Shown here: positions 3,028 through 6,388 of the stretch, piece by piece | Numbering within the stretch: position 1 is the first letter of the stretch | Layout of the letters: every line of letters starts with the position of its first letter | From: Eledone cirrhosa | Taxonomy: Eukaryota | Length of the DNA: 44,186 bases | Assembly: GCA_964016885.1 (NCBI GenBank) | Contig: CAXHJY010001023.1 | Coordinates: 1-44,186 of the forward strand | Reading direction: 5' to 3' | Notes under the pieces: generated by a model | Database searches by the model: none | Told to the model about the DNA's origin: nothing | The model's input: the letters and a program-made list of their open reading frames with translations, nothing else | Position numbers and translations under genes: made by a program

Positions 3028-3541
3028 GAGTTACAAACGAAACGAAATTTAATTTCGTTTCGTTATTTGTTTTTATCGTCTCCGCTGAACCGGTACGTAC
3101 TCACGCTCTATGCAAATTAGTCTGCCCACTACTAATTTTCATAGAAAAAGCATATAACGATATGTGCTTTTACGATTCTCTAGAAAGGCCGGAAGATAGG
3201 TAAATATTGCTGATGAGATGTAACAACATCGAAACTAGTCCAATATTCCTGTCTGGCTTTCTGGAGAATAGAGGAAAGGTGTTTCCTCGAAAACCAGTAT
3301 GACTCTAAAAACCGGTTTGTCTGTGTGTTTACATACAGAATAGCTGGACACTCACAGTCAAGTGTCCAGTGAAAAACTCGGTACATCTACATATGTACAC
3401 GTGTGTGTATTCATATGCATACTAGTATTTCAGTATACATATGTGGATGTACATTTTTAACTTAATTGTTTAAGCGTCAGTCATACAAAAGTGAGTTACA
3501 AACTAAACGAAATTTAATTTCGTTTCGTTATTTGTTTTTAT
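3028..3541 (+). mobile_element. Non-LTR retrozyme-like element, subfamily A (465-nt monomer + ~49-nt terminal redundancy)
   Basis: gagttacaaac(g/t)aaacgaaatttaatttcgtttcgttatttgtttttat occurs at 3028 and 3493. One intact HHR inside, many hairpins, non-coding, flanked by (TA)n. Confidence 0.8.
3203..3247 (+). ncRNA. Type I hammerhead ribozyme (canonical core, GUC site)
   Basis: aatattg-CTGATGA-gatgt-aaca-acatc-GAAA-CTAG-TC-caatatt: 7-bp stem I, 5-bp stem II, palindromic minimal stem III (ACTAGT). Confidence 0.93.
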
Positions 3542-5069
3542 ATATATATATATATATATATATATATATATATATATTTATATGTATATATGTATATATA
3601 TTTTTATATATATATATGTATATATATTTATATGTATATATGTATATATATGTTTATATATATATATATATATGTATATATATATATTTATATATGTATA
3701 TATATATATATATATGTATATATATATATTTATATATGTATATATATATATAATATATGTATATATATATATTTATATATGTATATATATGTATATATAT
3801 ATATATATATATGTATATATATATATTTATATATGTATATATATGTATATATATATATATATATATATGTATATATATGTATATATATATATACATATGT
3901 ATATGTGTATATATATATATATATATATACATATATATATATATATATATATATATATATATATATATATATATGTATATATATATATACATATGTATAT
4001 GTGTATATATATATATATATATATATACATATATATATATATATATGTATATATATATATACATATGTATATGTGTATATATATATATATATATATATAT
4101 ATATACATATATATATATATATATATATATATATATATATACATATATATATATATATATATATGTATATATATATATACATATGTATATGTGTATATAT
4201 ATATATATATATATATATATATATATATACATATATATATATATATATATATATATATATTTATATATGTATATATATGTATATATATATATACATATGT
4301 ATATGTGTATATATATATATATATATATATATATATATATATAATATATATATATATATATTTATATATGTATATATATGTATATATATATATATATATA
4401 TATATATTTATATATGTATATATATGTATATATATATATACATATGTATATGTGTATATGTATATATATGTATATATATATATATACATATGTATATGTG
4501 TATATATATATACATATATATATATATATATATATGTATATGTGTATATATATATACATATATATATATATATATATATACATATATATATATATATATA
4601 TATATATACATATATATATATACATATATATATATATACATATATATATATATATATATATATACATATATATATATATATATATACATATATATATATA
4701 TATATATACATATATATATATATATATATATATACATATATATATATATATACATATATATATATATACATATACATATATATATATATATATACATATA
4801 TATATACATATATATATATATATATATATACATATATATATATATATATACATATATATATATATATACATATATATATATATATATACATATATACATT
4901 TATATATATATATATACATATATATATATATATATATATATATACATATATACATATATATATATACATACATATATATATATATATATATATATATATA
5001 CATATATATATATATATATATATACATATATATATATATATATATATACATATATATATATTATATATT
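3542..5069. repeat. (TA)n microsatellite with G/C interruptions
   Basis: Direct inspection. Confidence 0.97.
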
Positions 5070-5366
5070 ATAAGTTGAAATAAAATGAAAACGAAATTTC
5101 ATTTCTCACTCTTAGTACGGCACTTACTTAAATGTAAGTATGTGTATATACGTACACACATATATGTATACAGACGTACAGTAGCATGCATATATATATA
5201 TATATATATACATACAGGTACACATACATATATGCACGTATCAGTTTAGAGGACGCTTATTATAACGCCGCTTTGTTCGTTTGTAAACAAACTGAACAGC
5301 CTGAATTTTTATGCCGTACGGTGTTAAGGCAACCACGTCACCTTTTTGTTCAACACTGACACAGGA

Positions 5367-5409
5367 ACGATGTACTAGTTTCAAGCTTGTTAGCTATCAT
5401 CAGCACCGT
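5367..5409 (-). ncRNA. Type I hammerhead ribozyme (GUA site)
   Basis: Minus strand reads acggtg-CTGATGA-t-agct-aaca-agct-t-GAAA-CTAG-TA-catcgt. Confidence 0.9.
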
Positions 5410-6093
5410 ATACCCATCTGCCAGATAGTTGAACGTTCGAAAGTATATACTTTCCTTATGAAAATTAACGGCTTAGCAGCCTAATTTGCATATCGAGTGA
5501 GCTAAGTCGGTCAGGCATACCGAAAACGATAACATACCGAAAACGATAAGTTGAAATAAAATGAAAACGAATTTCATTTCTCACTCTTAGTACGGCACTT
5601 ACTTAAATGTAAGTATGTGTGTATACGTACATACATATATGTATACAGACGTACAGTCGCATGCAAATATATATATATATATATATATATATATATATAT
5701 ATATATATATATATATATATATACATACAGGTACACATACATATATGCACGTATCAGTTTAGCGGACGCTTATTATAACGCCGCTTTGTTCGTTTGTAAA
5801 CAAACTGAACAGCCTGAATTTTTATGCCGTACGGTGTTAAGGCAACCACGCCATGCATGCTACTGTACGTCTGTATACATATATGTATGTACGTATACAC
5901 ACATACTTACATTTAAGTAAGTGCCGTACTAAGAGTGAGAAATGAAATTTCGTTTTCATTTTATTTCAACTTATCGTTTTCGGTATTCCTGACCGACTTA
6001 GCTCACTCGATATGCAAATTAGGCTGCTCAGCCGTTAATTTTCATACGGAAAGTATATACTTTCTAGCGTTCAACTATCTGGCAGATGGGTAT

Positions 6094-6136
6094 ACGATGC
6101 TGATTATAGCTAACAAGCTTGAAACAAGTACATCGT
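6094..6136 (+). ncRNA. Mutated, probably inactive hammerhead copy
   Basis: acgatg-CTGATTA-tagctaacaagctt-GAAA-CAAG-TA-catcgt: core G8 changed to T and the stem III palindrome is broken. Confidence 0.8.
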
Positions 6137-6388
6137 TCCTGTGTCAGTGTTGAACAAAAAGGTGACGTGGTTGCCTTAACAACGTACGGCATAAAAATCA
6201 GGCTGTTCAGTTTGTTTACAAACGAACAAAGCGGCGTTATAATAAGCGTCCGCTAAACTGATACGTGCATATATGTATGTGTACCTGTATGTATATATAT
6301 ATATATATATATATATATATATATATATATATGCATGCTACTGTACGTCTGTATACATATATGTATGTACGTATACACAATACTTACA

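Follow-up and report, generated by a model that had tools for sequence, protein, structure and literature searches.

The window analysed here is 44,186 nt long and is one entire contig (CAXHJY010001023.1) of the 3.0 Gb genome of the cephalopod Eledone cirrhosa. It is rich in (TA)n sequence, within which lie two islands, A and B (Table 1). The islands represent two young lineages of a non-coding hammerhead tandem element present in high copy number, a non-LTR (long terminal repeat) retrozyme. With moderate confidence, the element can be described as self-promoted, cut by its own ribozyme as a dimer, likely circular as RNA, and inserted into the genome by a Penelope-type enzyme. The retrozyme class itself is known and the surprise is moderate.

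Architecture and abundance

Copies of A and B form tandem and head-to-head arrays in (TA)n sequence, often with two opposed arms, and arrays of 466-nt units with intact cores reach about 31 consecutive units. The hammerhead pattern of A and B has 29,349 exact matches in the genome, with none for the reversed control, and that of a subfamily, A3, has 5,381 (reversed control, 2), giving a total of about 35,000 exact hammerhead matches. A first search for subfamilies retrieved 43 matches, all of them variants of A and B, and a candidate third family, C, proved to be a subfamily of A. Units of A and B range from 420 to 550 nt with a GC content of 0.35–0.38, and an internal (TA)n hairpin accounts for the length of the B monomer (about 420–550 nt). 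The initial annotation had regarded this length as unusual, but it falls within the 51–972 bp spanned by published retrozyme consensus lengths in the available part of 10.64898/2026.07.22.740005. Neither island has an open reading frame (ORF) for reverse transcriptase (RT) or a GIY-YIG endonuclease, and the long open frames across the region are microsatellite frames. The call that A and B lack LTR architecture comes from a search that left primer-binding sites and polypurine tracts aside; an Rfam scan of the window at the gathering score gave no matches.

B consists of two arms placed head-to-head, the minus arm followed by the plus arm. It had rightly been taken for a real element, but its limits are 5073–6389 rather than 5070–6388, and the plus copy first described has a damaged core, the intact hammerhead being on the minus strand. 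The motifs named in A and B were all found, at the exact position or at most one base off. Their starts in A and B, respectively, are 3100 and 6002 for CTCAC, 3109 and 6011 for TATGCAAATTAG (the 12-mer below), 3133 and 6036 for TAATTTTCATA, 3195 and 6085 for GATRGGTA, 3246 and 6136 for TTCCTGT, and 3326 and 6213 for TGTTTACA. At three genomic loci (L152, L104 and L027), A and B copies are inserted into or adjoin each other, and each of these copies holds (TA)-rich hairpin DNA, a possible insertion target.

The hammerhead ribozyme

The type I hammerhead of A has its predicted cut after position 3240 (GUC), and the intact core in the minus arm of B has a predicted cut at GUA, while the altered core of the B plus arm is likely inactive. 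Core residues are intact in most copies, for which activity is predicted. In both A and B, ribozyme cores were found in one polarity only, the opposite strand having none. Stem III would close a loop of 2 nt, which cannot form. Its sequence varies by family and remains palindromic (ACTAGT, ATGCAT, ACATGT, ACAGCTGT and AATCGATT), also in families D–G described below. A palindromic stem III is, in the accessible passages of PMC4209133, a dimer-cutting design that spares monomer circles. At three cores of the window (5379–5403 and 14433–14455 on the minus strand and 25471–25495 on the plus strand), the base of stem II is U-U or A-U/A-A instead of G-C.

Homology and the shared RNA fold

A and B are homologous, with 61% identity across 355–380 aligned nt. 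Among the outcomes named beforehand as refuting the initial annotation was a lack of similarity beyond the hammerhead core, but such similarity is present in both the 5' part (z 9.6) and the 3' part (z 6.4, 200 shuffles). Circular minimum-energy folds of six monomers, three of A type and three of B type, each folded alone with 25 shuffles, largely share one set of helices. Fold z ranges from -6.0 to -12.8 on the hammerhead strand and from -3.0 to -8.2 on the opposite strand; for each of the six, the hammerhead strand folds more stably than the complementary strand, and 65–70% of bases are paired. The common plan has hammerhead stem I with a TTCCTGT/GATRGGTA extension, a long carrying stem, a hairpin, a long-range helix around a hairpin domain, a GTGAG/CTCAC domain, a hairpin containing the 12-mer and a TATA hairpin.

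Covariation was followed in an alignment of 16 units from lineages A, B and the older F; lineages sharing the conserved fold are 54–64% identical. Changes on both sides occur in 22 of 53 pairs, a count that overstates independent events and stays below R-scape-grade significance, since the structure was derived from the same alignment and the 16 rows represent three lineages. Nevertheless, 97% of cells pair, none of 500 shuffles reaches the observed level and slid controls give 0–4 doubly changed pairs. The agreement among the separately predicted folds is stronger support than the pair count. Even among eight units of young A subfamilies, both sides have changed in 6 of 123 pairs. The compensatory helix changes first proposed between A and B are therefore borne out. 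That proposal extended to a structured RNA replicon under selection, of which selection on the RNA fold is supported and the replicon is not, as the insertion scars indicate reverse transcription by a Penelope-type enzyme.

The helices differ in how they change. Five of the seven pairs of the long-range helix are doubly changed. In B this helix had been thought to form across the unit junction and to be a sign of a circle, but in A and B both of its strands lie within one cleaved monomer, and it gives no argument for a circle because the junction is merely where the B insertion begins. The 12-mer helix, by contrast, has no doubly changed pair among nine, and the tail hairpin and the stem I extension likewise lack double-sided change. 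The 12-mer is also identical to a host U6-type upstream element, so part of its conservation is likely that of a DNA promoter, and not all of the shared motifs can be ascribed to RNA structure as had been supposed.

A candidate U6-type promoter

The comparison with host small-RNA genes covered U6, U6atac, RNase MRP, U1, U2 and RNase P, and two promoter classes were seen (L061–L064, L131, L137, L081–L096, L168–L179 and L270). In one class, the 12-mer stands at -77 to -79 and TATA at about -30, an offset of 47–49 nt; of nine distinct U6 upstream regions six belong to this class, as do the best of six U6atac loci and the single RNase MRP locus. In the other class, U1 and U2 have an AAATCAGT-like element at -59 to -61 and a TATA-like box at about -30, and the 12-mer is absent upstream of U1 (0/12), U2 (0/6) and RNase P (0/1). 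RNase P, unexpectedly, falls in this second class, with an AAATCAGT-like element and a TATA-like box. The 12-mer of both A and B matches that of U6 locus L062 at 12 of 12 positions (consensus TATG(C/G)(A/T)AAT(T/G)AG), and neither the A nor the B hammerhead is preceded by the AAATCAGT-like geometry of U1 and U2. A 43–44 nt spacing class was also looked for among the U1, U2 and RNase P promoters, which lack the 12-mer.

When the 12-mer was combined with CTGANGA in a pattern that leaves out A and B, the genome gave 1,625 matches (control 0). Those fetched are complete type I hammerhead elements of five further families, D (328 nt) and the older E, F, G and H, which carry the 12-mer and TATA (L180–L209, L230–L246); most of the first 100 matches listed belong to D and the remainder to four or five other families. 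TATA, which was not part of the pattern, lies at an offset of 41–48 nt in 19 of 21 copies across all families. The four flanking segments compared do not clearly resemble A and B in D, E or G (z at most 2.4). In D–H the 12-mer and TATA persist, whereas the partner strand of the 12-mer is not conserved. Transcripts begun 30 nt beyond TATA would start immediately 5' of stem I in each family, span hammerhead to hammerhead and hold the promoter of the next unit. From this arrangement of motifs it is fairly likely that the 12-mer and TATA start transcription about 30 nt past TATA, just 5' of stem I. Whether A and B are transcribed by RNA polymerase (Pol) III or Pol II is about evenly balanced.

Insertion ends and probable Penelope-type mobilisation

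Insertions have fixed 3' ends, variable 5' truncation and an inverted partial copy, and their 3' flanks are AT-rich or (TA)n DNA. Numbered from the predicted cut and with a few overlapping loci counted twice, 106 of 113 3' ends of A fall within two clusters about 70 nt apart, 63 at 291–310 (52 of them at 302) and 43 at 221–240. The tail between these two fixed ends, sites I and II, is about 70–74 nt long. A T run precedes site I in A, B and D, and family D has two end sites as well. Both ends could be read in 39 head-to-head A insertions; in 34 of these the two arms end at different sites, five have one irregular end and none has both arms at the same site (counted by hand, excluding two insertions with a different layout and four that extend beyond the locus). 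The same rule is followed by 22 of 25 two-armed B insertions and by that in the window (site I at 5073, site II at 6389); two of the 25 have site II on both arms and one is complex. Single-armed A insertions, also counted by hand, end at site I in 18 of 23 cases.

This pattern resembles what is described for Penelope elements. In the accessible text of PMC11167929, both strands of an AT-rich target are cut by the Penelope protein of an anole, which begins cDNA at two internal sites bounding the tail, and in that of PMC8557442 the Penelope tail is often at one end only. Five insertions have private variants fixed in all units and both arms, with which double priming on one RNA agrees. Penelope-type double priming on a single RNA, with one fixed site for each DNA end, is thus highly probable. 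Penelope-type RT and GIY-YIG fragments with broken ORFs lie in the same window.

The RNA template and a possible editing signature

The 5' ends of A (n = 115) scatter over the unit, apart from one bin close to the tail that has a higher count. None is at the cut site, four are within 12 nt of it where about six are expected, and there is no pile-up at the predicted start. Most arms run through the cut site, which points to a circle or an uncleaved multimer as template, not a cut linear monomer. A ligated monomer circle is the likelier template, and DNA-level duplication or multimeric templates also contribute to the arrays. Two runs from other organisms, of a type not on record, each contain one contig of 495–496 nt that closes after 465 nt; they were rejected as evidence for circles, as a tandem array gives the same result, and the A>G differences in one of them are indistinguishable from alleles.

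Array-fixed private variants (n = 19, with one locus per insertion and two divergent insertions dropped) include 7 A>G against 1 T>C, for which the p value of 0.03 is one-sided and post hoc and three of the seven come from one array. The corresponding counts are 3 against 6 in single-unit insertions and 21 against 31 for variants within arrays, and with a diverged subfamily included the variant count becomes 9 A>G and 4 T>C. A signature of adenosine-to-inosine (A-to-I) editing in array-fixed variants is therefore a weak lead only. One A3 array (L224) holds 17 full units over its two arms, all with one and the same sequence, in which three A>G changes in the 12-mer keep its pairing as G-U and break the motif; this array is a candidate for an edited, promoter-dead template.

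Table 1. Features of elements A and B in the window
Feature	Position	Strand	Description
A insertion	3028..3541	+	465-nt unit 3028–3492 plus 49 nt of the following unit; bounded by (TA)n on both sides; fixed site I at its 3' end
A tail hairpin	3035..3064	+	directly 5' of fixed end site I; within the CTCAC/GTGAG domain; part of the tail between the fixed ends
A CTCAC	3100..3104	+	pairs with GTGAG 3491–3495 of the next unit; GTGGG/CCCAC in subfamily B2
A 12-mer TATGCAAATTAG	3109..3120	+	identical to the -78 element of host U6 locus L062; also pairs with 3132–3143; likely promoter element
A TATA-like box	3151..3158	+	42–44 nt after the start of the 12-mer; predicted transcription start near 3183 from the host TATA-to-start distance
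A carrying stem	3175..3269	+	3175–3192 with 3253–3269, plus GATAGGTA/TTCCTGT extension; holds the hammerhead
A hammerhead, type I	3203..3247	+	stem I 3203–3209/3241–3247; core CTGATGA 3210–3216; stem II 3217–3230; palindrome ACTAGT 3234–3239
A long-range helix	3297..3486	+	GTATGACT 3297–3304 with AGTCATAC 3479–3486; closes the hairpin domain
A site II	3454..3467	+	T5 run and fixed end site; ends at 3464–3472 in other copies
B left arm	5073..5853	-	about 1.6 units; site I at its 3' end (5073); intact hammerhead core 5379–5403; 12-mer 5481–5492
B right arm	5854..6389	+	about 1.1 units; site II at its 3' end (6389)
B long-range helix	5922..6191	+	TGCCGTAC 5922–5929 with GTACGGCA 6184–6191
B 12-mer and TATATA	6011..6059	+	TATGCAAATTAG 6011–6022, TATATA 6054–6059, offset 43; inferred start near 6084
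B right-arm hammerhead	6094..6136	+	damaged core (CTGATTA; ACAAGT)

Alternative explanations

Several observations weigh against a self-promoted circle inserted by a Penelope-type enzyme, and many of them concern the promoter. The offset from 12-mer to TATA is 42–44 nt in A, B, D, E, F and H compared with 47–49 nt in host genes, family G alone having a host-like 48, and with this mismatch polymerase and function stay putative. T runs are present within units (two T5 in A, T6 in B2 and T10 in one D copy), and such runs would terminate Pol III in many animals. The 12-mer doubles as a hairpin strand in A and B, its presence in D–H is given by construction of the search pattern, and the 310-nt hammerhead family of the same window lacks it. 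The 12-mer could then be a POU-type octamer enhancer or a structural helix, with transcription by Pol II from an altered promoter or from flanking host promoters instead of a U6-type Pol III promoter. The offset, 4–5 nt shorter than in host Pol III genes, and the internal T5–T10 runs fit such a reading, as do the classic octamer within the 12-mer and the broken 12-mer in one array of at least 17 units. However, the host Pol II genes U1 and U2 use the AAATCAGT-like element without a 12-mer, the match to host Pol III genes extends beyond the octamer to all 12 bases, family G is spaced as in the host, and D–H keep 12-mer and TATA but not the pairing partner. A Pol II precedent, newt satellite 2 with its small nuclear RNA (snRNA)-type promoter, is found in the accessible part of PMC2220036, and the available text of PMC1761439 holds no direct passage on a spacing difference between Pol II and Pol III that could be used for A and B. 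On balance this reading, with the 12-mer as octamer or helix and no U6-type Pol III promoter, appears less likely than the preferred one.

The remaining points against the preferred reading concern template and mobilisation. No autonomous partner was found, a BLAST comparison of A and B with the rest of the window, to which the search was limited, giving no match, and the two B insertions with site II on both arms depart from the two-site rule. Repeats of 2–4 units within several arrays fit DNA duplication after insertion, so array length alone is no proof of rolling-circle copying. Uncleaved RNA is the main substrate of the anole Penelope protein in vitro, according to the accessible text of PMC11167929. 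The same element could be inserted in the same way from a long, uncleaved, linear read-through multimer ending at the T-rich site I, any circles being by-products. The T run ahead of site I in A, B and D is as expected of a Pol III 3' end, and the preference of single-armed A insertions for site I and the higher-order repeats point the same way. A linear multimer nevertheless seems unlikely, as neither the predicted start nor the cut site shows an accumulation of 5' ends, one array has three private A>G changes in all 18–19 pieces of both arms, which is easier to obtain from one molecule read repeatedly, and the palindromic stem III is kept across families, so that dimer cleavage seems selected. 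Two further explanations are far less probable. DNA satellites or foldback elements spread as DNA, with fold and hammerhead as relics, would account for the local tandem duplications and the long inverted arms, but the end pattern, with 3' ends fixed and 5' ends scattered, largely refutes them, and strand-asymmetric folding, compensatory change even among young subfamilies and tens of thousands of intact cores are also against them. An autonomous viroid-like replicon copied from RNA to RNA, with genomic copies as accidental fossils, would suit the strongly self-paired monomer of 420–500 nt and its viroid-like size; it is very improbable given that the opposite strand of A or B has no ribozyme core, the fold is branched and not rod-like, a DNA promoter-like block is conserved, genomic units are very numerous (about 35,000) and insertions have Penelope-type ends.

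Other elements in the window

A separate 310-nt hammerhead family occupies 23890–25976 as two opposed arms with units 99–100% identical. Ahead of its hammerhead, AAACCAGT is followed after 22 nt by TATAAG, the geometry of host U1/U2 promoters, without a 12-mer; to judge from these motifs, the family is possibly a Pol II snRNA-type counterpart. A two-armed Penelope-type element at 12403–21700 has hammerheads at 14433–14455 (minus) and 19249–19271 (plus), a partial RT and GIY-YIG ORF at 12702–13874 (minus) and a broken RT/endonuclease-like frame at about 19424–21600, with a long interspersed nuclear element (LINE) fragment at about 15100–16670 between its arms. An inverted pair at 26983–27186 and 29060–29263 carries another hammerhead (cores 27038–27062, minus, and 29184–29208, plus). 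Endonuclease and RT frames of LINE type lie at 30179–32261 (minus). Nested Penelope-type pieces at 32554–40500 include inverted repeats (34141–34916 and 39402–40177, 99% identical) and hammerhead-like cores at 33752, 34263, 40023 and 40413; a GIY-YIG fragment (37654–38190) and RT-like frames (35320–37046 and 40686–41027) are found in or near them.

Relation to known elements

Metazoan non-LTR retrozymes of coral, mussel and axolotl, as far as described in the accessible parts of PMC7229834 and 10.64898/2026.07.22.740005, share with A and B a type I hammerhead in each short tandem unit, the lack of an ORF-bearing body, a self-paired monomer, Penelope-like elements alongside and a GC content comparable with the 35–38% of A and B. 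Circles and cleavage have been shown for published retrozymes and are predicted for A and B. In the same accessible text there is no promoter analysis, cross-family covarying fold, two-site end rule or cephalopod. Neither cephalopod retrozymes nor a retrozyme with a type 3 promoter were the subject of any paper found in a literature search, with subscription journals, Repbase and Dfam entries and preprint supplements outside its scope.

With Penelope-like elements, in the available passages of PMC11167929, PMC8557442 and PMC4209133, A and B share 5'-truncated partial tandems, an inverted 5' copy, a one-ended tail, AT-rich or (TA)n targets, two internal start sites and a palindromic stem III. 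They differ in having no RT/GIY-YIG ORF and, in A, a tail of about 70 nt compared with the published 30–40 bp. Hammerhead repeats with an internal promoter are described in part of PMC2220036, where newt satellite 2 has an snRNA-type Pol II promoter and the schistosome satellite a Pol III promoter; the block in A and B matches, in a comparison of sequences, the host U6/U6atac/MRP class and not U1/U2. Short interspersed nuclear elements (SINEs), Cassandra, Helenus and Ajax (accessible part of PMC10886601) are likewise non-coding retroelements that borrow a host small-RNA promoter, but they use gene-internal tRNA or 5S promoters. In A and B the promoter would be of the upstream, type 3 kind, and only RNA in tandem or circular form would preserve it.

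Proposed mechanism and implications

The proposed cycle begins with what is observed, tandem and head-to-head arrays of tens of thousands of units with a common fold and compensatory change. The U6-type block in each unit would drive transcription, and read-through into the next unit would copy the promoter into RNA, which would solve the loss of an upstream promoter on retrotransposition. Two neighbouring hammerheads would then cut as a dimer and spare the monomer circle, as may be deduced from the stem III palindrome with its forbidden 2-nt loop and from the accessible part of PMC4209133. The cut monomer would be ligated into a circle and serve as template. A Penelope-type RT-endonuclease would nick both strands of AT-rich DNA, and cDNA would begin at two fixed RNA sites, each serving one DNA end, on either side of a structured domain that is conserved; the result would be a pair of opposed arms whose length is not fixed. 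A broader version, which is possible but tentative, is that a superfamily with at least seven families in the genome captured an external U6-type Pol III promoter of the host, made heritable by a self-cut and religated RNA circle, that a dimeric Penelope enzyme copies one such circle from two fixed sites into the two ends of a DNA break, and that A-to-I edits made by the host are thereby carried back into the genome.

If true, a retroelement would carry an external U6-type promoter, which is impossible for an ordinary SINE. In the cited literature, the transcription of retrozymes and their insertion into animal genomes are proposed rather than demonstrated, and the A/B family offers testable handles on both, a candidate promoter defined against host small-RNA genes and a conserved fold marking the likely enzyme-binding domain. 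The near-strict rule that the two arms end at different sites would explain the one-ended tail of Penelope elements. If the promoter is real, the family would also supply native U6-type promoter sequences for the host lineage and a natural design for making RNA circles.

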